Origin: a virus
Lineage: Duplodnaviria > Heunggongvirae > Uroviricota > Caudoviricetes
Reading direction: 5' to 3' (one strand)
IMG/VR virus record: IMGVR_UViG_2630968533_000004
DNA length: 47,366 bases
Positions 19,699-45,062 of the stretch are shown in pieces. Each line of letters starts with the position of its first letter. Positions within the stretch are counted from its first letter, which is position 1. The notes under the pieces were generated by a model that worked only from the letters and a program-made list of their open reading frames with translations, ran no database searches and was not told the origin of the DNA. Both the position numbers and the translations under genes were made by a program.

Positions 19699-19993
19699 CA
19701 TGTTTATAGTATTAGCATCAATTTCTCATCAGATGCTATTCAACAATACAAATTACCCATAAACCTCGTTTTTACGGGGTTTTGTTATATTTAAACATTA
19801 CCGAATAGATATAAATCTCGATTGTCGATGGTATTGGTTGTGTGACAATACCTAGTCTTTCCGGTATGCCTGAAGAGAATACAAACGACAGATTATGTAA
19901 GGGAAACGCGCTGAAACTTTCACTCTTTCATGCTGAGTGATTTGACGTTATATTTTTAGCCGCAAGTGAAGAGCAAACGAATGGAGCGACAAA

Positions 19994-35682: not shown

Positions 35683-38600
35683 ATGGGTAAAGGCAGCAGT
35701 AAGGGGCATACCCCGCGCGAAGCGAAGGACAACCTGAAGTCCACGCAGCTGCTGAGTGTGATCGATGCCATCAGCGAAGGGCCGGTTGAAGGTCCGGTGG
35801 ATAGATTAAAAAGCGTGCTGCTGAACAGTACGCCGGTGCTGGACAGTGAGGGGAATACCAATATATCCGGCGTCACGGTGGTGTTCCGTGCCGGTGAGCA
35901 GGAGCAGACACCGCCGGAGGGGTTTGAATCCTCCGGCTCCGAGACGGTGCTCGGTACAGAAGTGAAATATGACACTCCGATCACCCGGACCATCACGTCG
36001 GCAAACATTGACCGTCTGCGTTTTACTTTCGGCGTGCAGGCACTGGTGGAAACCACCTCAAAGGGGGACAGGAATCCATCGGAAGTCCGCCTGCTGGTTC
36101 AGATACAACGTAACGGTGGCTGGGTGACGGAAAAAGACATCACCATTAAGGGTAAAACCACTTCACAGTATCTGGCCTCGGTGGTGGTGGATAACCTGCC
36201 GCCGCGCCCGTTTAATATCCGGATGCGCAGGATGACGCCGGACAGCACCACAGACCAGCTGCAGAACAAAACGCTCTGGTCGTCATACACCGAAATTATC
36301 GATGTGAAACAGTGCTACCCGAACACGGCACTGGTCGGCGTGCAGGTGGATTCGGAGCAGTTCGGCAGCCAGCAGGTGAGCCGTAATTATCATCTTCGCG
36401 GGCGCATTCTGCAGGTGCCGTCGAACTATAACCCGCAGACGCGGCAATACAGCGGTATCTGGGACGGAACGTTTAAACCGGCATACAGCAACAACATGGC
36501 CTGGTGTCTGTGGGATATGCTGACCCATCCGCGCTACGGCATGGGGAAACGTCTTGGTGCGGCGGATGTGGATAAATGGGCGCTGTATGTCATCGGCCAG
36601 AATTGCGACCAGTCGGTGCCGGATGGCTTTGGTGGCACGGAGCCGCGCATCACCTGTAATGCCTGGCTGACCACACAGCGTAAGGCGTGGGATGTTCTCA
36701 GTGATTTCTGCTCGGCGATGCGCTGTATGCCGGTATGGAACGGGCAGACGCTGACGTTCGTGCAGGACCGACCGTCGGATAAGGTGTGGACCTATAACCG
36801 CAGTAATGTGGTGATGCCGGATGATGGCGCGCCGTTCCGCTACAGCTTCAGCGCCCTGAAAGACCGCCATAATGCCGTTGAGGTGAACTGGATTGACCCG
36901 GATAACGGCTGGGAGACGGCAACAGAGCTTGTGGAGGACACGCAGGCCATTGCCCGTTACGGTCGTAACGTCACGAAGATGGATGCTTTTGGCTGTACCA
37001 GCCGGGGGCAGGCACACCGCGCCGGGCTGTGGCTGATTAAAACAGAACTGCTGGAAACGCAGACCGTGGACTTCAGCGTGGGTGCCGAAGGGCTTCGCCA
37101 TGTGCCGGGTGATGTTATTGAAATCTGCGATGATGACTATGCGGGGATCAGCATCGGCGGGCGCGTGCTGGCTGTGAACAGCCAGACCCGGACGCTGACG
37201 CTCGACCGTGAAATCACGCTGCCATCCTCCGGTACCACGCTGATAAGCCTTGTTGACGGTCAGGGTAATCCGGTCAGCGTGGAGGTCCAGTCCGTCACCG
37301 ACGGCGTGAAGGTGAAAGTGAGCCGTGTTCCTGACGGCGTTGCTGAATACAGCGTGTGGGGGCTGAAGCTGCCGACGCTGCGCCAGCGCCTGTTCCGCTG
37401 CGTGAGTATCCGTGAGAACGACGACGGCACGTATGCCATCACCGCCGTGCAGCATGTACCGGAAAAAGAGGCCATCGTGGATAACGGGGCGCACTTTGAC
37501 GGCGACCAGAGCGGCACGGTGAATGGTGTCACGCCGCCAGCGGTGCAGCACCTGACCGCCGAAGTCACCGCAGACAGCGGGGAATATCAGGTGCTGGCGC
37601 GCTGGGACACGCCGAAGGTGGTGAAGGGCGTGAGTTTCCTGCTTCGCCTGACCGTGGCAGCGGATGACGGCAGTGAGCTGCTGGTCAGCACGGCCCGGAC
37701 GGCGGAAACCACATACCGCTTCAGGCAACTGGCGCTGGGGAACTACAGGCTGACAGTCCGGGCGGTAAATGCGTGGGGGCAGCAGGGCGATCCGGCGTCG
37801 GTATCGTTCCGGATTGCCGCACCGGCAGCACCGTCGAGGATTAAGCTGACGCCGGGCTATTTTCAGATAACCGCCACGCCGCATCTTGCGGTTTATGATC
37901 CGACGGTACAGTTTGAGTTCTGGTTCTCGGAAAAGCGGATTGCGGATATCAGGCAGGTTGAAACCACAGCCCGCTATCTTGGCACGGCGCTGTACTGGAT
38001 AGCTGCCAGTATCAATATCAAGCCGGGCCATGATTATTATTTTTACATCCGCAGTGTGAACACCGTTGGCAAATCGGCATTCGTGGAGGCTGTTGGCCAG
38101 CCGAGTGATGATGCATCCGGCTATCTGGATTTTTTCAAAGGAGAGATAGGGAAAACCCATCTGGCTCAGGAGTTGTGGACGCAGATTGATAACGGTCAGC
38201 TTGCGCCTGACCTGGCGGAAATCAGAACGTCCATCACGGATGTCAGTAATGAAATCACGCAGACCGTCAATAAGAAACTGGAAGACCAGAGTGCAGCGAT
38301 CCAGCAGATACAGAAGGTTCAGGTTGATACAAATAATAACCTGAACAGCATGTGGGCTGTGAAGCTGCAGCAGATGCAGGACGGACGCCTTTATATCGCG
38401 GGTATTGGTGCCGGTATTGAAAACACCCCTGACGGCATGCAGAGTCAGGTGCTGCTGGCGGCAGACAGGATTGCGATGATTAATCCTGCGAATGGCAACA
38501 CAAAGCCGATGTTTGTTGGTCAGGGCGATCAGATATTTATGAATGAAGTGTTCCTGAAATATCTGACGGCTCCCACCATTACCAGCGGCGGTAATCCTCC

Positions 38601-39162
38601 GGCATTTTCCCTGACACCGGACGGGCGGCTGACGGCGAAAAATGCCGATATCAGCGGTAACGTGAATGCGAACTCCGGGACGCTCAACAACGTCACGATT
38701 AACGAGAACTGCCGGGTTCTGGGAAAACTGTCCGCGAACCAGATTGAAGGCGATCTCGTTAAAACAGTGGGCAAAGCTTTCCCCCGGGACTCCCGTGCAC
38801 CGGAACGGTGGCCATCAGGGACCATTACCGTCAGGATTTATGACGATCAGCCGTTTGACCGGCAGATTGTTATTCCGGCGGTGGCATTCAGCGGCGCTAA
38901 ACATGAGAGAGAGCATACTGATATTTACTCCTCATGCCGTCTGATAGTGCGGAAAAACGGTGCTGAAATTTATAACCGTACCGCGCTGGATAATACGCTG
39001 ATTTACAGTGGCGTTATTGATATGCCTGCCGGTCACGGTCACATGACGCTGGAGTTTTCGGTGTCAGCATGGCTGGTAAATGACTGGTATCCCACAGCAA
39101 GTATCAGCGATTTGCTGGTTGTGGTGATGAAGAAAGCCACCGCAGGCATCAGTATCAGCTGA
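35683..39162 (+). CDS. Host specificity / central tail fibre protein (gpJ-like)
   Basis: 1159 aa, collinear with lambda J by size and position. Confidence 0.9.
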
Positions 39163-39229: not shown

Positions 39230-39829
39230 ATGCGTAAATTATGTGCTGTTATTCTGTCCGCAGTAGTCTGGCTGGTTGCCGCTGGTACGCCAGCGAGCGC
39301 AGCAGAGCATCAGTCCACACTAAGCGCCGGGTATCTTCAGACCCATACTGATATGCCAGGCAGTGATGACCTGAAGGGCATTAACGTGAAATACCGTTAT
39401 GAATTTACGGACACGCTGGGGCTGGTGACGTCATTCAGTTATGCCAATGCCAAAGATGAGCAAAAAACGCATTACAGCGATACCCGCTGGCATGAAGATT
39501 CCGTGCGTAACCGCTGGTTCAGCATGATGGCGGGGCCATCTGTACGCGTGAATGAATGGTTCAGTGCTTATGCGATGGCGGGTATGGCTTACAGCCGTGT
39601 GTCGACCTTCTCCGGGGATTATCTCCGCGTAACTGACAACAAGGGGAAAACGCATGATGTGCTGACCGGAAGTGATGACGGTCGCCACAGCAACACGTCT
39701 CTGGCGTGGGGGGCTGGCGTGCAGTTTAACCCGACCGAATCCGTGGCCATTGACCTTGCTTATGAAGGTTCCGGCAGTGGTGACTGGCGCACTGACGGTT
39801 TCATCGTGGGTGTCGGTTATAAATTCTGA
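39230..39829 (+). CDS. lom: Lom-like outer membrane protein (Ail/Lom family)
   Basis: Signal peptide; beta-barrel pattern; C-terminus IDLAYEGSGSGDWRTDGFIVGVGYKF matches recalled lambda Lom. Confidence 0.85.
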   Translation: MRKLCAVILSAVVWLVAAGTPASAAEHQSTLSAGYLQTHTDMPGSDDLKGINVKYRYEFTDTLGLVTSFSYANAKDEQKTHYSDTRWHEDSVRNRWFSMMAGPSVRVNEWFSAYAMAGMAYSRVSTFSGDYLRVTDNKGKTHDVLTGSDDGRHSNTSLAWGAGVQFNPTESVAIDLAYEGSGSGDWRTDGFIVGVGYKF

Positions 39830-39855
39830 TTAGCCAGGTAACACAGTGTTATGAC

Positions 39856-39882
39856 AGCCCGCCGGTTCAGGCGGGCTTTTTT
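39856..39882 (+). terminator. Rho-independent terminator after lom
   Basis: AGCCCGCCGGTTCAGGCGGGCT hairpin then TTTTTT. Confidence 0.6.
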
Positions 39883-39887
39883 GTGGA

Positions 39888-42266
39888 GTGGATATGGCAG
39901 CAGTAAAAATCTCAGGTGTGCTGAAAGATGGTGCGGGAAAACCAATACAGAACTGCACTATTCAACTGAGGGCAAAGCGTAACAGCACCACGGTACTGGT
40001 GAACACGGTGGCTTCTGAAAATCCGGATGAAGCCGGACGTTACAGCATGGATGTTGAGTATGGCCAGTACAGCGTCACCCTGCTGGTTGAAGGTTTTCCG
40101 CCTTCACATGCCGGGACCATTACCGTCTATGAAGGCTCCAGACCAGGTACGCTGAATGATTTTCTCGGTGCCATGACGGAAGATGATGTCATGCCGGAGG
40201 CATTGCGTCGTTTTGAGGCAATGGTGGAAGAAGTGGCACGCAACGCCGAAGCCGCCTCTCAGAGCGCAGCGGCGGCAAAGAAATCCGAAACTGCAGCGGC
40301 ATCATCAAAGAACGCGGCGAAAACCTCAGAAACGAATGCAGCTAATAGTGCACAGGCGGCAGCGGCCTCACAGACTGCATCGGCAAACTCCGCGACAGCA
40401 GCCAAAAAATCAGAAACCAACGCGAAAAATAGCGAGACAGCCGCAAAGACGAGCGAAACCAACGCAAAGTCCAGCCAGACGGCAGCGAAAACCAGCGAAA
40501 CGAATGCCAAAGCCAGTGAAACTGCGGCAAAAAACAGCCAGGTTGCAGCAGCCCAAAGCGAGAGCGCGGCAGCCGGTTCTGCGACTTCAGCAGCCGGATC
40601 AGCAACTGCTGCGGCTAACAGCCAGAAAGCTGCGAAGACGAGTGAAACTAACGCAAAGTCCAGCCAGACGGCAGCGAAGACCAGCGAAACGAATGCCAAA
40701 GCCAGCGAAACTGCGGCGAAAAACAGCCAGGATGCAGCAGCCGAAAGCGAGAGTGTTGCAGCTGGTTCTGCAAGCGCGGCGGCTGCTTCTGCCACTGCAT
40801 CAGCTAACAGTCAAAAAGCAGCAAAAACCAGTGAAACCAACGCAAAGACAAGCGAGACTGCGGCAGCTAACTCGGCGAAAGCATCCGCTGCAAGCCAGAC
40901 AGCGGCTAAAGCAAGTGAAGATGCAGCCAGGGAGTACGCAAGCCAGGCAGCTGAGCCGTATAAACAAGTTTTGCAGCCACTGCCTGATGTGTGGATACCG
41001 TTTAATGACTCGATGGATATGATTGCAGGATTTGGCCCGGGATATAAAAAAATAACAGTGCGCGATGATGTGGTCACTATACCATCCGACAAAATTGTCC
41101 CGTTTTCCCGCGCGAGTTCCGCGACCTATATCAATAAGTCCGGCGCTCTTACCATTGCAGAAATTAATGAGCCACGTTTTGAAAAAGAAGGGCTGTTAAT
41201 TGAAGGGCAGAGAACTAACTATCTAAAAAATTCTAATACACCGGAATTGTGGTACTACCACAGTTTACTGGCGAAAGAGTATGGGGTTGATAATTACGGT
41301 TTTAATTATGCAACCGTCACCGTGACAGACAGTCTTGTAGGCACAACCAGTAGTTATCAGATTCATAGTGTAACTGGAGAGAACAGGTTTTCTCTGTCCA
41401 TCGGTGAAACCTGCACTTTTTCTGCCCGCTTTCGTGGAGTTAATTCACGTTGTCGCGTCCATATATCTCTTGTTATTGGCGAAAATGTTAAAACATCCGT
41501 TGATGTATGTCTGGAGCCAGATACAGGTGAGGTTAAGGCGTACGGTAATAAGGCGCTGGTGACATTCAGAACGGAAAAACAGGGGGACTGGTGTTACTTT
41601 GAAACAACATATACCGCCGCAGAGAATATTGACGAAGTGGTATGCGGTTTTTTTATAACCAATCCTGAAGATGGTGGTTTTTCTTCTGATTCGTCATTAA
41701 CAATGACTACGCCGCAAATTGAAAAAGGGCCATGCGCTTCATCGTTTATTATTTCCGGAAACACACCAACCACGCGCGCCAGTGATATGGTTATTTTTTC
41801 AACCAGAAATAACATAAGTTCTGTCCCTTTAAGCTGTCTTGTTGAAATACATAAAAATTGGGACTCTACGCCAAATCAGGCCCCACGAATTTTAACCACT
41901 ATTGGCGTGGCGACTAATGATGAACAACTGGTATTGGCTTTCAGGACGCCTACAAGTCCGGATGTAGAACCTTTACCTTATGTTCAGTTTGGAGTGAGAT
42001 CTGCATATCTTAGTCCATCTGTGAAGGCCGGGCGCAAAATGATTGCTGGTTTTGTCTGTAATAGCTCGACTGAATTTCGTTGCTGTTGTAATGGTTACCT
42101 GTCACCTGTTCAGACTTCGTCATGGAAGAATACCGGAGCTGCACATGAAATACGTATTGGGGGAACTTCTGCTGGAGGAGAACGTCACTTGTTTGGTCAC
42201 GTTCGTAACCTGAGAATATGGCATAAAGAATTAACTGATGCGCAAATGGGGGAGTCAGTAGAATGA
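39888..42266 (+). CDS. stf: Side tail fibre protein (Stf-like) with Ala/Ser/Thr-rich repeats and distinct C-terminal domain
   Basis: N-terminus AVKISGVLKDGAGKPIQNCTIQLRAKRNSTTV... is lambda-Stf-like; central SETNAK/AAKTSE repeats; C-terminal third is AT-richer with no lambda-like sequence. Confidence 0.85.
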   Translation: MDMAAVKISGVLKDGAGKPIQNCTIQLRAKRNSTTVLVNTVASENPDEAGRYSMDVEYGQYSVTLLVEGFPPSHAGTITVYEGSRPGTLNDFLGAMTEDDVMPEALRRFEAMVEEVARNAEAASQSAAAAKKSETAAASSKNAAKTSETNAANSAQAAAASQTASANSATAAKKSETNAKNSETAAKTSETNAKSSQTAAKTSETNAKASETAAKNSQVAAAQSESAAAGSATSAAGSATAAANSQKAAKTSETNAKSSQTAAKTSETNAKASETAAKNSQDAAAESESVAAGSASAAAASATASANSQKAAKTSETNAKTSETAAANSAKASAASQTAAKASEDAAREYASQAAEPYKQVLQPLPDVWIPFNDSMDMIAGFGPGYKKITVRDDVVTIPSDKIVPFSRASSATYINKSGALTIAEINEPRFEKEGLLIEGQRTNYLKNSNTPELWYYHSLLAKEYGVDNYGFNYATVTVTDSLVGTTSSYQIHSVTGENRFSLSIGETCTFSARFRGVNSRCRVHISLVIGENVKTSVDVCLEPDTGEVKAYGNKALVTFRTEKQGDWCYFETTYTAAENIDEVVCGFFITNPEDGGFSSDSSLTMTTPQIEKGPCASSFIISGNTPTTRASDMVIFSTRNNISSVPLSCLVEIHKNWDSTPNQAPRILTTIGVATNDEQLVLAFRTPTSPDVEPLPYVQFGVRSAYLSPSVKAGRKMIAGFVCNSSTEFRCCCNGYLSPVQTSSWKNTGAAHEIRIGGTSAGGERHLFGHVRNLRIWHKELTDAQMGESVE
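40440..40820. repeat. Tandem direct repeat (about 2 x 189 bp) inside stf
   Basis: Block starting near 40443 (gcaaagacgagcgaaaccaacgcaaagtccagccagacggcagcgaa...) recurs near 40632 with a few substitutions. Confidence 0.6.
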
Positions 42267-42541
42267 AAGATTTTACGCTGAAGTTTCGAGATCGGGAAGG
42301 CTATAAAGCATTCTTGAATGAAATTAATTGGGAAGATAATGAAGTATTGCAAGATCAACTCCTGATTGATGAAATTGGATTCGCTTTCGATGAAGTCGGC
42401 AGAAATGCCGACGACGAACCAATTTATCAACGACGCGACGGTTATTTTGTAAATATTAGAATCTTAGATGAAAAGCTGGACGCATCACCATTTACCGGAA
42501 ATGTAGTGATTCTTGATGCTCCTCTTCGTGAATGGGCTTGA
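42263..42541 (+). CDS. Hypothetical small acidic protein in tail-fibre locus
   Basis: 92-aa ORF; start overlaps stf stop; AT-rich. Confidence 0.45.
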   Translation: MKDFTLKFRDREGYKAFLNEINWEDNEVLQDQLLIDEIGFAFDEVGRNADDEPIYQRRDGYFVNIRILDEKLDASPFTGNVVILDAPLREWA

Positions 42542-42551
42542 GGGGTAATAT

Positions 42552-43592
42552 ATGGCGAACTTAACAGTAATTCCTGATGACATCAAAACGCTAAAATCCG
42601 ACGTTAGCAAATTAAAAAAAGATCAAGGAAGCTACGCAACAAAATCATATGTAGACAATAAAACAACATGGAATGGTTATTGCAATGTAATCTATGATCA
42701 AAAGACATTGCCGACCACTGGAACTATATTTAGCGGTAAGATTCACTTGTCAAATAAGACAGGAGAAACCGAAAACGCTTATGGTGAGATGTACACCAGA
42801 AAAAATATTGACGGTACAAAAGATACAATGACAAGGATTGTCACACACAATGGAACAAAAGGTATCTTTTGGGATTTTAGCGATCTTTACGGTGGAACAT
42901 TAATTTTTCCAGGCAGTGATGGTTACCTTAAGATGGGGAACTGTCTCATGTCGTATGGTGTGCGGGGAAGTAACGCGCTTATTAAGTTTGACTGCACAGA
43001 CACATTACAAATCAAATATGCTAATCATGGGTCAACCATGACAATAAACACACAAGGAACCGCTCACGCTGGCGTTACTGCTAGCTTGTGGGGCAACTCT
43101 AGCCGTCCGGTTGTATATGAAGTTGGTGCTGATGGTGGCGCGTATATGTTCTATGCGCAGAAACATACCGATAACACCTATATGTTAAGCGTTAATGGTG
43201 CATGTCATGCCACCGCATTTAACCAGCATTCCGACCGGGATCTGAAAGACAACATTCAGGTGATCGATAATGCAACCGACCGCATCCGTAAAATGAACGG
43301 CTATACATACACTCTTAAAGAAAATGGCATACCTTACGCTGGTGTTATCGCGCAAGAAGCACTAGAAGCAATCCCAGAAGTTGTAGGCTCTGCAATGAAA
43401 TATCAGGATGGTGGAAGCGGGTCGAAAGGTGAAGAAGGTGAACGTTATTACACAGTAGATTATTCTGGTGTTACTGGCTTGCTTGTTCAGGTAGCCAGAG
43501 AGTCAGACGACAGAATAACAGCACTGGAAGAAGAAAACGCAGAATTAAGACAAAGATTATCTGCAATTGAGGTGGCGCTTGCGTCTAAATAA
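42552..43592 (+). CDS. Tail fibre / tailspike-like protein with C-terminal intramolecular chaperone (peptidase S74) domain
   Basis: C-terminus SDRDLKDNIQVIDNATDRIRKMNGYTYTLKENGIPYAGVIAQEALEAIPEVV...YYTVDYSGVTGLLVQVARESDDRITALEEENAELRQRL fits the endosialidase-chaperone pattern. Confidence 0.7.
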   Translation: MANLTVIPDDIKTLKSDVSKLKKDQGSYATKSYVDNKTTWNGYCNVIYDQKTLPTTGTIFSGKIHLSNKTGETENAYGEMYTRKNIDGTKDTMTRIVTHNGTKGIFWDFSDLYGGTLIFPGSDGYLKMGNCLMSYGVRGSNALIKFDCTDTLQIKYANHGSTMTINTQGTAHAGVTASLWGNSSRPVVYEVGADGGAYMFYAQKHTDNTYMLSVNGACHATAFNQHSDRDLKDNIQVIDNATDRIRKMNGYTYTLKENGIPYAGVIAQEALEAIPEVVGSAMKYQDGGSGSKGEEGERYYTVDYSGVTGLLVQVARESDDRITALEEENAELRQRLSAIEVALASK

Positions 43593-43598
43593 TATTAA

Positions 43599-43619
43599 GG
43601 GGCCGAGCGCCCCGTTTTA
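43599..43619 (+). terminator. Hairpin + T-tract after fibre gene
   Basis: GGGGCCGAGCGCCCC then GTTTTATT. Confidence 0.5.
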
Positions 43620-43628
43620 TTGGGTGGG

Positions 43629-43928
43629 ATGAAAATGGATATAACACCTTTCCTTCATGCACTTTGTGCTGTGGCTGCGCAGGTACTGGTTGGCCTTTTT
43701 ACCGGAAACTGGGTTTACGGTGCGATAGCCGGTTGTACGTTCTTCATTGCGCGTGAACACACCCAGGCAGAATATCGCTGGATTGAAATGTTCGGGCATG
43801 GCAAGCGAATGAATATGCCGTGGTGGGGCGGTTTTGATCTACGCGCGTGGGATGTAGCAAGCCTGATGGATTTTGCTGTGCCGGTGGTGGCGTGTCTGCT
43901 GGTCTGGCTGTTGGTTAATCGTGTGTGA
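43629..43928 (+). CDS. Small membrane protein (two predicted TM helices)
   Basis: Hydrophobic segments ALCAVAAQVLVGLF and FAVPVVACLLVWLLV; start ambiguous (TTG 43620, ATG 43629 or 43635). Confidence 0.5.
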   Translation: MKMDITPFLHALCAVAAQVLVGLFTGNWVYGAIAGCTFFIAREHTQAEYRWIEMFGHGKRMNMPWWGGFDLRAWDVASLMDFAVPVVACLLVWLLVNRV

Positions 43929-44155
43929 AAAAAGGTGAGCTGTATATGCAACGGAGGAAGAAACCCCGTTGCTGGAAGCATGGAAAAAGTATCGGGTATT
44001 GCTGAACCGTGTTGATACGTCAACTGCACAGGATATTGAATGGCCAGCACTGCCGTAGGGTAAAACATATAAATTCTATAATTAGATGTATCTTTCCATT
44101 TACGGCAAGGAAGGGGGCTTGGAAGACGTAAAGCATCTCACACCGAGATTATTTT

Positions 44156-44746
44156 TTATATGTCAGGTGTCTGAAGTTTTGCTTTGGCTCTTAAAATGGT
44201 TTGCCGCGAGGTTTTGAATTCCCGGGCAATGGCACTTATACTTACACCTGACTTAATTCGTTCGAATACCACCTGTTTCTGTTCTTCATTTAACACAGGT
44301 GGTCGACCAAAACGTTTCCCTGCGCCGCGGGCTCTTACTATCCCGGAATGAGTGCGTTCAAGTAAAAGGTCTCGTTCAAATTCAGCGACTGCTGAAATTA
44401 CTTGCATCATCATTTTTCCTGTTGGACTGGTCAGGTCAATGCCACCCAATGCTAAGCAATGCACTCTGATACCTGTTTCGGTCAGTTGTTCCACTGTTTT
44501 CCTGATATCCATTGCATTACAACCAAGGCGATCCAGTTTTGTCACAATCAATTGATCACCACATTTCAGGCGAGCAAGCAACCGGTTAAAACCAGGACGC
44601 TCACTGGTTGCTGCTGAGCCGCTAATGTGTTCTTCGATTATTTGCTGAGGTTTGATTTTAAAACCTGCACTTTCGATTTCCCGGCGTTGATTTTCGGTGG
44701 TCTGATCCAGCGTTGATATCCGACAGTAAGCAAAAATTCGAGACAT
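44156..44746 (-). CDS. pin: Serine recombinase, DNA invertase (Pin/Gin/Hin family)
   Basis: 196 aa; N-terminal catalytic region [16 protein letters not shown] (Ser nucleophile) and C-terminal HTH; matches Pin-family invertases. Confidence 0.9.
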
Positions 44747-45062
44747 AGTGAGACTCTATACGAAATTGGTGTTCATATCATAATGCATCTCAGAAAATAA
44801 TTATGATTATTTTTGTGCATATTTGTATGTACACGTTCGAAAATAAACGAATGCGTATGCAACCCCGTAATTTTGGTGAGACCCAAAATCGATTTTGTGA
44901 AAAAAGGCTTTAACTCGGTTTGTTTTTCGAGTTCCGGGCGGACTCAAGGAAGAAGAATAGTGTTGCGTGTTATTTTAACCAGATTTCAAGTTGTTTGGTC
45001 GTGGAAAAGTGGAGCAAAATGTTGTTAAAGTGGAAAAATGATAAAAAAGTAAGTTTATTATA

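Follow-up and report, generated by a model that had tools for sequence, protein, structure and literature searches.

The question raised by this locus is where the parts of a side tail fibre that begins like that of phage lambda and ends differently come from, and how far the exchanged DNA extends. We addressed it by establishing the anatomy, homologies and folds, the structure of the alleles and the boundaries in composition of an open reading frame at 39888-42266 (+ strand) of the window, by which we mean the whole 47,366-nucleotide stretch of caudoviricete DNA (IMG/VR record IMGVR_UViG_2630968533_000004). The program-made frame opens at GTG 39888, but the true start of stf is most likely ATG 39894, giving a protein of 790 aa that ends at 42266, because a GGAG ribosome-binding site (39886-39889) lies 4 nt upstream, RefSeq calls the same start for WP_001546831.1, which occupies this position in a prophage of 100% identity, and the resulting MAAVKISG resembles the MAVKISG of lambda. 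The phrog_1419 profile matches the protein end to end (1252.7 bits; residues 4-791 on profile positions 1-793 of 793), and dozens of finished E. coli genomes contain an annotated prophage gene with 100% identity to it. The gene lies downstream of J (35683-39162) and lom (39230-39829), the order of a lambdoid tail operon, and the 100% identical prophages in RefSeq adjoin ydfK/ydfJ. We consider it highly probable that stf is the side tail fibre gene of a lambda-like prophage at the Qin site of E. coli and that it is a three-part mosaic. The gene is already catalogued and ordinary, an instance of textbook tail-fibre mosaicism that alters no concept of the field. Minus-strand and +2-frame open reading frames over the shaft (178 aa, 279 aa) were rejected as genes, being stop-free by-products of the GCN/ACN-rich repeat, as with lambda orf206b. 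The parts of the gene are as follows.

39894..42266, + strand: stf, side tail fibre gene, 790 aa (open reading frame; RefSeq WP_001546831.1; phrog_1419; ribosome-binding site)
39900..40289, + strand: N-terminal collar/attachment domain and linker, lambda Stf-like (Pfam PF08400; identity to lambda orf-401)
40197..40958, + strand: proximal coiled-coil shaft rich in Ala/Ser/Thr/Lys, repeating at 21 nt (one heptad) and 42 nt (TRF; direct repeats; lambda alignment)
40431..40619, + strand: 189-bp (63-aa, 9-heptad) tandem unit, copy 1 (TRF; offset scan)
40620..40808, + strand: 189-bp tandem unit, copy 2 (TRF; direct repeats; offset scan)
40809..40858, + strand: partial third copy of the 189-bp unit, after copy 2
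40959..41249, + strand: conserved neck that joins the shaft to the tip, aa 356-452 (homologue conservation; homology breakpoints; GC3 change point)
41196..41780, + strand: GTA head-spike-fibre-type beta-sandwich domain, aa 435-629, with a variable body (NCBIfam NF048003; AF2)
41781..42263, + strand: LamG/ConA-like jelly-roll domain at the C-terminus, aa 630-790; its last strands are conserved (beta-sandwich fold)

The N-terminus is lambda-like, as a sequence-only reading of this stretch had claimed. The phage_tail_N family (PF08400) is matched at E 2.4e-66 (222 bits against a cutoff of 26.6), and BLASTP aligns Stf to lambda orf-401 with 61% identity over 285 aa and ~85% across residues 3-120 (residues 2-120 of lambda Stf). 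In Ur-lambda, Stf residues 1-91 form a dodecameric collar on the tail, and region 102-393 of lambda Stf has been assigned as proximal coiled coil (PMC12617516). The shaft of the window's protein aligns to that segment and has the same composition and heptad repeat, visible as periods of 21 and 42 (TRF) and as two direct-repeat families (D1 and D3), so that the Ala-rich heptad shaft expected of a lambda-type Stf is present, in the same place after J and lom and behind a collar ~85% identical. By homology to Ur-lambda, the collar domain would anchor a trimeric fibre to the tail where tube and tip meet, and the heptads would build an Ala/Ser/Thr/Lys-rich trimeric coiled-coil shaft.

Within the shaft lies a tandem duplication that had been described as near-perfect. 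The 189-bp duplication exists, TRF reporting it at 40431-40858 (period 189, 2.3 copies, 83% matches, score 597) and the offset scan giving 90% identity over the best 150 nt at offset 189 against 67% or less at all other offsets, but it is not near-perfect: the copies match at 83% overall and at ~92% in the core (116/126 between 40447-40572 and 40636-40761), and the edges of the unit are only 60-65% identical, near the background set by the 21/42-nt heptad repeat. The duplication, a doubling of one 63-residue (9-heptad) block, is old: its copies have diverged by 17%, and it is found also in other phages (e.g. 2G7b, Tritos and HannyBb).

Given the repeats inside the shaft DNA, homologous recombination between unequal positions would be expected to remove or add whole heptads, and the repeat does prove to be a site of length variation. 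Length alleles of 727, 720 and 734 aa with identical termini were found, the deletions below lying in prophages that are identical in other respects. The 727-aa allele is an exact in-frame 189-nt deletion with identical flanks (664/664 and 1666/1666), which is reproduced exactly by removing one unit with the crossover anywhere in 40491-40517 (27 equivalent positions), and the 734-aa allele is an exact in-frame 168-nt deletion. The 727-aa and 734-aa alleles came from draft assemblies, where tandem repeats are likely to collapse, and the three variants could thus be short-read artefacts instead of true alleles. We think this very unlikely, since the copies differ by 17% and share no more than ~26 nt of unbroken identity at the crossover, less than usual assembly k-mers, since the 727-aa allele occurs on 11 contigs, since finished E. 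coli genomes differ in the same region by +0, +105, +168 and +189 nt, in each case a multiple of 21, and since one unit, exactly 189 nt, is missing from the complete genome of phage IdasGreatGrand; an origin by assembly collapse was rejected on these grounds. The recent shaft events are deletions of whole heptad multiples, each of which would shift the length of the fibre by ~1 nm per heptad, or ~9 nm per 63-aa unit, and keep the coiled-coil register.

Beyond the shaft the resemblance to lambda ends. The tip shows no similarity to lambda orf-314, in line with the earlier remark that it lacks lambda-Stf similarity, and the lambda hinge, gp37-like needle, OmpC-binding tip and Tfa chaperone are all absent here. 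In their place stands a pair of ConA-like jelly-roll domains, one of the GTA head-spike-fibre type and one LamG-like, with a different small partner gene. A lectin or jelly-roll fold had been suggested as something to look for in this part, and the search was positive. NF048003 matches aa 435-629 with 67.2 bits (curated cutoff 36; profile 1-181 of 182) and AF2 models this domain with pLDDT 75-92; the C-terminal domain folds as a beta-sandwich jelly roll similar to those of LamG, pentraxin or CBM domains. PF13385 (LamG/ConA-like) stays below the Pfam gathering threshold for aa 623-790 (22.4 bits against 27.6), and the 51%-identical relative P0026 scores 29.9. A PDB sequence search with the tip returned a single marginal match, the RcGTA spike fibre (phmmer, E 0.05). 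Through NF048003, the sequence of aa 435-629 is homologous at the domain level to the RcGTA head spike fibre (Rcc01080, PDB 6TB9). Column identity is 37-60% in the head-spike-fibre domain, and strong conservation of the junction segments and last strands (aa 753-790) contrasts with variable domain bodies; P0017 and P0024 diverge mostly in the head-spike-fibre domain, P0017 also in the LamG-like one. The tip most likely binds a surface glycan: the variable bodies would most likely attach reversibly to a polysaccharide on the host surface, which would make adsorption faster ahead of the binding of J to its receptor. A literature search on LamG/head-spike Stf tips found no functional characterisation and no characterised homologue, and one on the relatives IdasGreatGrand and HannyBb found no functional characterisation.

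The tip is not an orphan but belongs to the type of Stf tip carried by phage 21 (CPT_21_22, OL657228; phrog_1419), to which it is ~50% identical and with which the distal module aligns over its full length. Phage 21 Stf likewise has a lambda-type N-terminus, an Ala-rich coil, a conserved neck and two jelly-roll tip domains, and both proteins end in HLFGH(V/I)RN(L/F)RIWHKEL. The two differ in that the window's shaft is ~100 aa longer, the 63-aa duplication included, and in that the tips are only ~50% identical. This tip type and its 92-aa partner occur in about 180-218 phage genomes of many lineages, the tip and the 92-aa gene being found in lambda-like, Dhillonvirus, Queuovirinae, T5-like and rV5-like phages. 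A contig scan that required two exact peptide patterns gave four confirmed loci and is little guide to spread beyond Escherichia. One match, in a 'Collinsella' MAG, is a 2.8-kb contig that is probably misbinned.

The junction between the lambda-like and phage-21-type parts lies in the neck, which is 70-87% conserved among 21 homologues. Megablast similarity to other lambdoid phages, at 92-98% DNA identity, stops at query 1166-1187 or 1335-1365, that is, at 41053-41074 or 41222-41252 of the window, with none beyond, and the GC3 change point also falls here (near codon 417, ~41145); the neck is a place of recurrent homology breakpoints. Recombination inside it (aa 356-452) would have brought in the phage-21-type distal module; between lambda and Qin/Rac, stf-tfa recombination has been measured experimentally (PMC3945230). 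The lower GC that had been noted in the C-terminal part is present (55-58% at 40100-40900 against 40-46% at 41000-42266). With a GC2 of 0.68 in the Ala-rich coil against 0.46 in the tip, amino-acid composition accounts for part of the drop and drives much of the raw difference. One might then ask whether the GC contrast and the apparent mosaic are nothing but an effect of composition, an Ala-rich shaft next to a globular domain in a gene inherited vertically without exchange. This we regard as scarcely credible, and it was rejected. GC3 falls too, from 0.49 to 0.36 within stf (Fisher p = 2e-4), the distal half of lambda's own Stf is unrelated to the window's tip, and the same tip is joined to unrelated N-termini in phages of the T5-like, Dhillonvirus and rV5-like groups, so that the discordant spread of the two halves already refutes a pure composition artefact.

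The reading of the gene as a mosaic, with a recombined host-range module, therefore stands, but its extent was underestimated when it was put at the last ~400 codons. GC3 remains low in the two genes downstream (0.30 in a 92-aa gene and 0.37 in a 346-aa gene) and then recovers to 0.52 (low-GC3 block against flanks, p = 5e-37). The foreign block is therefore a module of three genes, the stf tip, the 92-aa gene and the 346-aa gene, and reaches to ~43600. The features downstream of stf are these.

42263..42541, + strand: 92-aa partner gene, presumed assembly factor or adaptor (open reading frame; ATGA overlap; phrog_1361)
42552..43592, + strand: 346-aa second fibre protein with a conserved N-terminal peptide, variable middle and C-terminal Peptidase_S74 (PF13884; phrog_4563)
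43635..43928, + strand: small membrane protein of 97 aa, conserved also in the phage 21 module; GC3 0.52 (WP_001546828.1; phrog_1443)
43948..44058, + strand: tfa 3' remnant, marking on the right the older distal module that was replaced (annotated in RefSeq as the pseudogene 'tail fiber assembly protein, missing N-terminus'; sequence)
44156..44746, - strand: pinQ-type serine DNA invertase, apparently orphaned (Pfam Resolvase and HTH_7; RefSeq pinQ)

The 92-aa gene (orf92) is translationally coupled to stf, whose stop its start codon overlaps (ATGA, 42263-42266), an arrangement that is also found in phage 21, ev203, EC104, IdasGreatGrand, L012 and L014. The gene adjoins the tip type in 180 phage records. 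AF2 gave an unusable model of its product (pLDDT 52.8, from a 17-sequence alignment at 79-98% identity). The 346-aa protein carries the Peptidase_S74 intramolecular chaperone (PF13884) from aa 227 to its end (E 7.6e-14), and a Pfam search of Stf itself gave no S74 match; it has no phage_tail_N domain, only S74 and a short conserved N-peptide whose motif is shared with the counterparts in IdasGreatGrand and EC104. The distal module would accordingly have come in with its coupled 92-aa gene and with a fibre gene bearing its own S74 chaperone. In phage 21 the overlapping 92-aa gene is also followed by the small membrane protein of 97 aa, whose phage 21 homologue is annotated with a signal sequence and two TMDs, but the 346-aa S74 fibre gene between them is an addition in the window.

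This third gene bears on what the jelly-roll domains do. They might serve mainly as a docking platform, the 92-aa protein and/or the conserved tip holding the 346-aa S74 protein by its N-peptide in a branched fibre, an arrangement that is conceivable but that we do not favour. We are equally reserved about its corollary, that the exchangeable product of the third gene gives at least part of the host specificity, as for LtfA/LtfB of the T5-like phage DT57C. Overall identity among the products of the third gene in the window, IdasGreatGrand and EC104 is no more than 24-29%, and yet they have in common an MxTxTVIPxDIxxLK N-terminus and an S74 C-terminus; the peptide lies directly downstream of orf92 in 11 of the 11 phages found by both searches, the third slot varies (empty, 234, 346 or 576 aa), and aa 753-790 of Stf and its junction segments are conserved around variable bodies. 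Branched fibres with N-terminal docking are documented (PMC4728585, PMC10713586), DT57C has, like the window, two tandem fibre genes, of which the second encodes a short, conserved N-terminus and carries S74, an autocleaving chaperone, and in T5-like EC104 a tip of the same type (52% identity) comes with the 92-aa gene and a fibre gene downstream. However, a third gene is missing behind the tip and orf92 in phage 21, Lambda_ev203 and an E. ruysiae prophage, and the tip must therefore work without a branch; both tip-domain bodies are themselves highly variable, as for an adhesin. In DT57C, moreover, S74 is on both proteins and LtfB is thought to dock mid-shaft on LtfA (PMC4728585), unlike the window, where Stf lacks S74 and the 92-aa gene intervenes. 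We keep to glycan binding by the tip itself as the most likely function. An extension of the docking idea, which we offer only as speculation and think unlikely, is that the tip, the 92-aa protein and the N-peptide S74 protein make up a plug-and-play branched side-fibre cassette of lambdoid, T1-like, Queuovirinae, T5-like and rV5-like coliphages, in which MxTxTVIPxDIxxLK would dock any downstream receptor-binding protein onto the Stf tip framework or the 92-aa adaptor, and heptad-quantised deletions and duplications would tune reach to O-antigen or capsule thickness.

The stf gene offers a clean, fully traceable example of how a host-range gene of a temperate phage evolves, in which two modes are visible: domain bodies flanked by conserved junction segments are exchanged, and unequal crossing-over alters the length of the coiled coil by whole heptads. 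For phage engineering (e.g. lambda-based delivery particles with chimeric Stf), the gene suggests natural fusion points at aa ~389-396, 445-455 and 603-632, and the widespread, uncharacterised tip class identified here has its own 92-aa partner, which would have to be transferred along with it.

The right-hand end of the locus retains traces of an earlier arrangement. Neither the gp37-like distal part that binds the receptor in a lambda-type Stf nor the Tfa chaperone encoded behind it is present, the tip having no orf-314 similarity and only a 37-codon tfa remnant being left; where phage 21 has sitABCD downstream, the window's prophage has this stub and pinQ. As in the Pin/Gin/Cin segments of e14, Mu and P1, a pin-family invertase adjoins fibre genes with a tfa fragment next to it, but the inverted crossover sites and alternative fibre exons of those systems were not found. 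Within 39800-44900 no inverted crossover sites or repeats better than 22 nt at 73% were found, and a AAACCNNGGTTT-like crossover core (Hin/Gin/Pin) occurs once in the whole window, at 19761, within chance expectation. As crossover cores and inverted repeats near the fibre genes are not above chance, the tip was rejected as part of a live invertible segment, and the invertible fibre switch appears to be dead. From the stub and the invertase we infer the direction of replacement: the phage-21-type module would have displaced an older Pin-invertible arrangement of gp37-like Stf tip and Tfa, with the 3' end of tfa and pinQ left over.

The lambda-like prophage that fills the window carries J, lom and the flagged ORF consecutively on the + strand, and stf is a textbook mosaic tail fibre gene. 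Our data supports the sequence-only reading of a mosaic Stf with a recombined distal module, once the module's extent and the quality of the shaft repeat are corrected. The features concerned are:

35683-39162, + strand: J, 1159 aa
39230-39829, + strand: lom, between J and stf
39894-42266, + strand: stf, third in the row J, lom, stf
43635-43928: gene of a 97-aa protein (phrog_1443), conserved at the end of the phage-21-type module; GC3 0.52
43948-44058: 3' fragment of tfa (tail fibre assembly), 37 codons, after the 97-aa gene
44156-44746, - strand: pinQ-type serine invertase, next to the tfa remnant

Identical sequences are already in RefSeq and PHROGs. All 2379 bases of the flagged ORF (39888-42266) match at 100% the gene for WP_001546831.1 (annotated 'prophage tail fiber N-terminal domain-containing protein') in at least 25 finished E. 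coli genomes, and the entire protein is matched end to end by a single PHROG family (phrog_1419). DNA searches returned 86 records at ≥99% identity, and 93 genomes cover at least 80% of the query; in IMT16316 the prophage adjoins ydfK/ynfT/ydfJ, the Qin site. Mildly new are only the alleles that step by exact whole heptads and the conserved cassette of three syntenic genes, both described below. Stf (790 aa) is predicted to start at ATG 39894, not GTG 39888, because the hairpin that terminates lom ends at 39885, GGAG precedes this ATG by 4 nt and MAAVKISG resembles lambda MAVKISG. This strong terminator-like hairpin (39859-39885; GCCCGCCGG...CAGGCGGGC, then TTTTTT) stands between lom and the stf RBS, so stf expression presumably needs antiterminated late transcription; in phage 21 a terminator is annotated at the equivalent place, after J. 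J itself has 1159 aa versus ~1132 aa in lambda (3399-nt CDS).

The N-terminus is lambda-like, as first read (Pfam phage_tail_N, E 2.4e-66), with ~85% identity to lambda orf-401 at residues 3-120 and 61% across 285 residues, and the C-terminal region, as had also been proposed, has nothing in common with lambda orf-314 (distal half). The collar of Ur-lambda Stf, at the gpV/gpM junction, has 12 members and is made of residues 1-91; a linker comes next, then a trimeric proximal coiled coil at 102-393 (PMC12617516); the alignment of the window Stf spans exactly these parts. Stop-free ORFs in other frames lie over the Ala-rich shaft (279 aa, 40183-41022, +2 frame; 178 aa, 40259-40795, - strand); the annotated lambda counterpart is orf206b, and they are most likely compositional by-products rather than genes.

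The C-terminal region is indeed AT-richer, GC falling from 55-58% to 40-46%, a drop owed in part to amino-acid composition because the Ala-rich shaft has a GC2 of 0.68. GC3 decreases within stf as well (0.49 to 0.36, Fisher p = 2e-4), the change point lying near codon 417 (~41145); it is still low in both following genes (0.30, then 0.37) and is back to 0.52 only at 43635 (block versus flanks, p = 5e-37). The recombined module had been placed in the last ~400 stf codons; a compositionally foreign block is present there, but it extends beyond stf, and therefore comprises three genes (~41100-43600): the distal part of stf, a 92-aa gene (42263..42541) and a 346-aa fibre gene (42552..43592).

Residues 356-790 align end to end with phage 21 Stf, and 218 phage records from lambda-like, Dhillonvirus, Queuovirinae and T5-like phages have tips with 46-52% identity to this one. 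The search for lectin or jelly-roll folds was positive: the AlphaFold2 tip model (22 sequences, mean pLDDT 65.7) has a disordered neck and then two confident beta-sandwiches, NCBIfam identifies a GTA head-spike-fibre domain at residues 435-629 (67 bits, cutoff 36), and the last 168 residues give a Laminin_G_3 match below threshold (22.4 versus 27.6 bits), which a relative at 51% identity passes. Conservation over homologues is 67-87% in three segments (neck, 363-452; between the domains, 603-632; last strands, 753-790), versus 24-60% in the two domain bodies. Among homologous tip proteins, P0024 differs only at ~residues 445-630, up to its truncated C-terminus, while P0017 diverges from ~residue 513 to ~757 and re-converges only in the conserved last strands; Megablast likeness to other lambdoid phages ends at 41053-41074 or 41222-41252. 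The conserved segments thus behave as joints for recombination, with variable cassettes between them. A 2.8-kb contig binned as a Collinsella MAG also encodes a tip, with 66% identity to that of the window (L011, JAGZNZ010000051.1), almost certainly a misbinned Escherichia phage fragment.

The tandem duplication of ~189 bp in the shaft is present, but 'near-perfect' overstated it: TRF gives period 189, 2.3 copies, 83% matches and score 597 at 40431-40858, and only the core (40447-40572 versus 40636-40761) is 92% identical. At offset 189 identity is 90% over the best 150 nt and at all other offsets ≤67%; the unit edges (60-65%) barely exceed the background of the 21/42-nt heptad repeat that occupies 40300-40950. 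The duplication is old, because phages 2G7b, ev207, Tritos, HannyBb and PhiR46_1 share it in colinear alignment through the repeat. The suggestion that the repeat is a site of length variation was borne out by a protein search with the tip, which returned proteins of 720, 727 and 734 aa with 100% identical C-termini, which differ from the window Stf solely by shaft gaps of 63+7, 63 and 56 residues. The 727-aa allele (L007) equals the window DNA minus 189 nt from any of 27 start positions (40491-40517), which fall in a stretch identical between both repeat copies, the signature of unequal homologous recombination; its flanks are identical at 664/664 and 1666/1666 positions. The 734-aa allele (L010) has lost exactly 168 nt (40326-40493) between two heptad-level repeats. 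Assembly collapse is ruled out as the source of the short alleles, because spans of this region in finished genomes differ by 0, 105, 168 or 189 nt, each a multiple of 21, and the complete genome of phage IdasGreatGrand is shorter here by exactly 189 nt. Coiled coils rise ~0.15 nm per residue, from which we infer that one 63-aa unit adds ~9 nm to a ~38-nm shaft.

The analysis demonstrates how the sequence is laid out, its folds, the structures of the alleles and the boundaries in composition; we infer the oligomeric state, the class of ligand and the order in which events took place. In the most likely mechanism, N-terminal collar domains would anchor Stf trimers (four, by homology to Ur-lambda), the shaft would project outward with its length set by heptad number, and the paired jelly-roll domains would bind surface polysaccharide reversibly, so that adsorption is faster before J binds its outer-membrane receptor. 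This is the general view of how siphovirus lateral fibres act on O-antigen (PMC8594841).

That stf genes are exchanged horizontally has been known for a long time, and experiments have measured how lambda recombines with Qin and Rac stf/tfa (PMC3945230). The pinQ gene and tfa remnant (43948-44746) look like an orphaned host-range switch: no inverted crossover sites were found near the fibre genes (inverted repeats, 39800-44900; crossover cores across the window), and no alternative fibre exons are left. On the simplest reading, an older lambda/Qin-type arrangement of distal Stf, Tfa and Pin-invertible segment was overwritten by a phage-21-type module, its left joint falling within the stf neck and its right joint immediately upstream of the tfa stub.

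Stop codon of stf and start codon of the 92-aa gene (phrog_1361) overlap (ATGA), and this gene is found with the same tip type in 180 phage records, phage 21 included. Directly after it, the 346-aa protein ends in a Peptidase_S74 intramolecular chaperone, and HS/DRDLKDN at the start of that domain looks like the usual autocleavage site (compare PMC4728585). This third slot encodes 234 aa in IdasGreatGrand and Escherichia sp. E1V33 and 576 aa in the T5-like EC104, and is empty in phage 21, ev203 and E. ruysiae. In 11/11 phages present in both searches, the gene directly downstream of the 92-aa gene encodes a product that starts with the motif MxTxTVIPxDIxxLK and ends in an S74 chaperone; the cassette was compared over the window (42263-43592) and six retrieved loci (L002-L005, L012, L014). 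The main rival reading, and a potential addition to the mechanism above, is a fibre branched like DT57C LtfA/LtfB, for which the motif may be the docking peptide. This position, and the sharing of the motif by three third-gene proteins with 24-29% overall identity, suggest a branch without demonstrating it; phage 21, however, has no third gene, so the tip can work alone, and we regard branching as possible but rather doubtful. The 97-aa gene has normal GC3 (0.52), unlike the genes before it. For its phage 21 homologue the annotation gives a membrane protein bearing a signal sequence plus two TMDs; the 97-aa protein may be a moron or exclusion factor.
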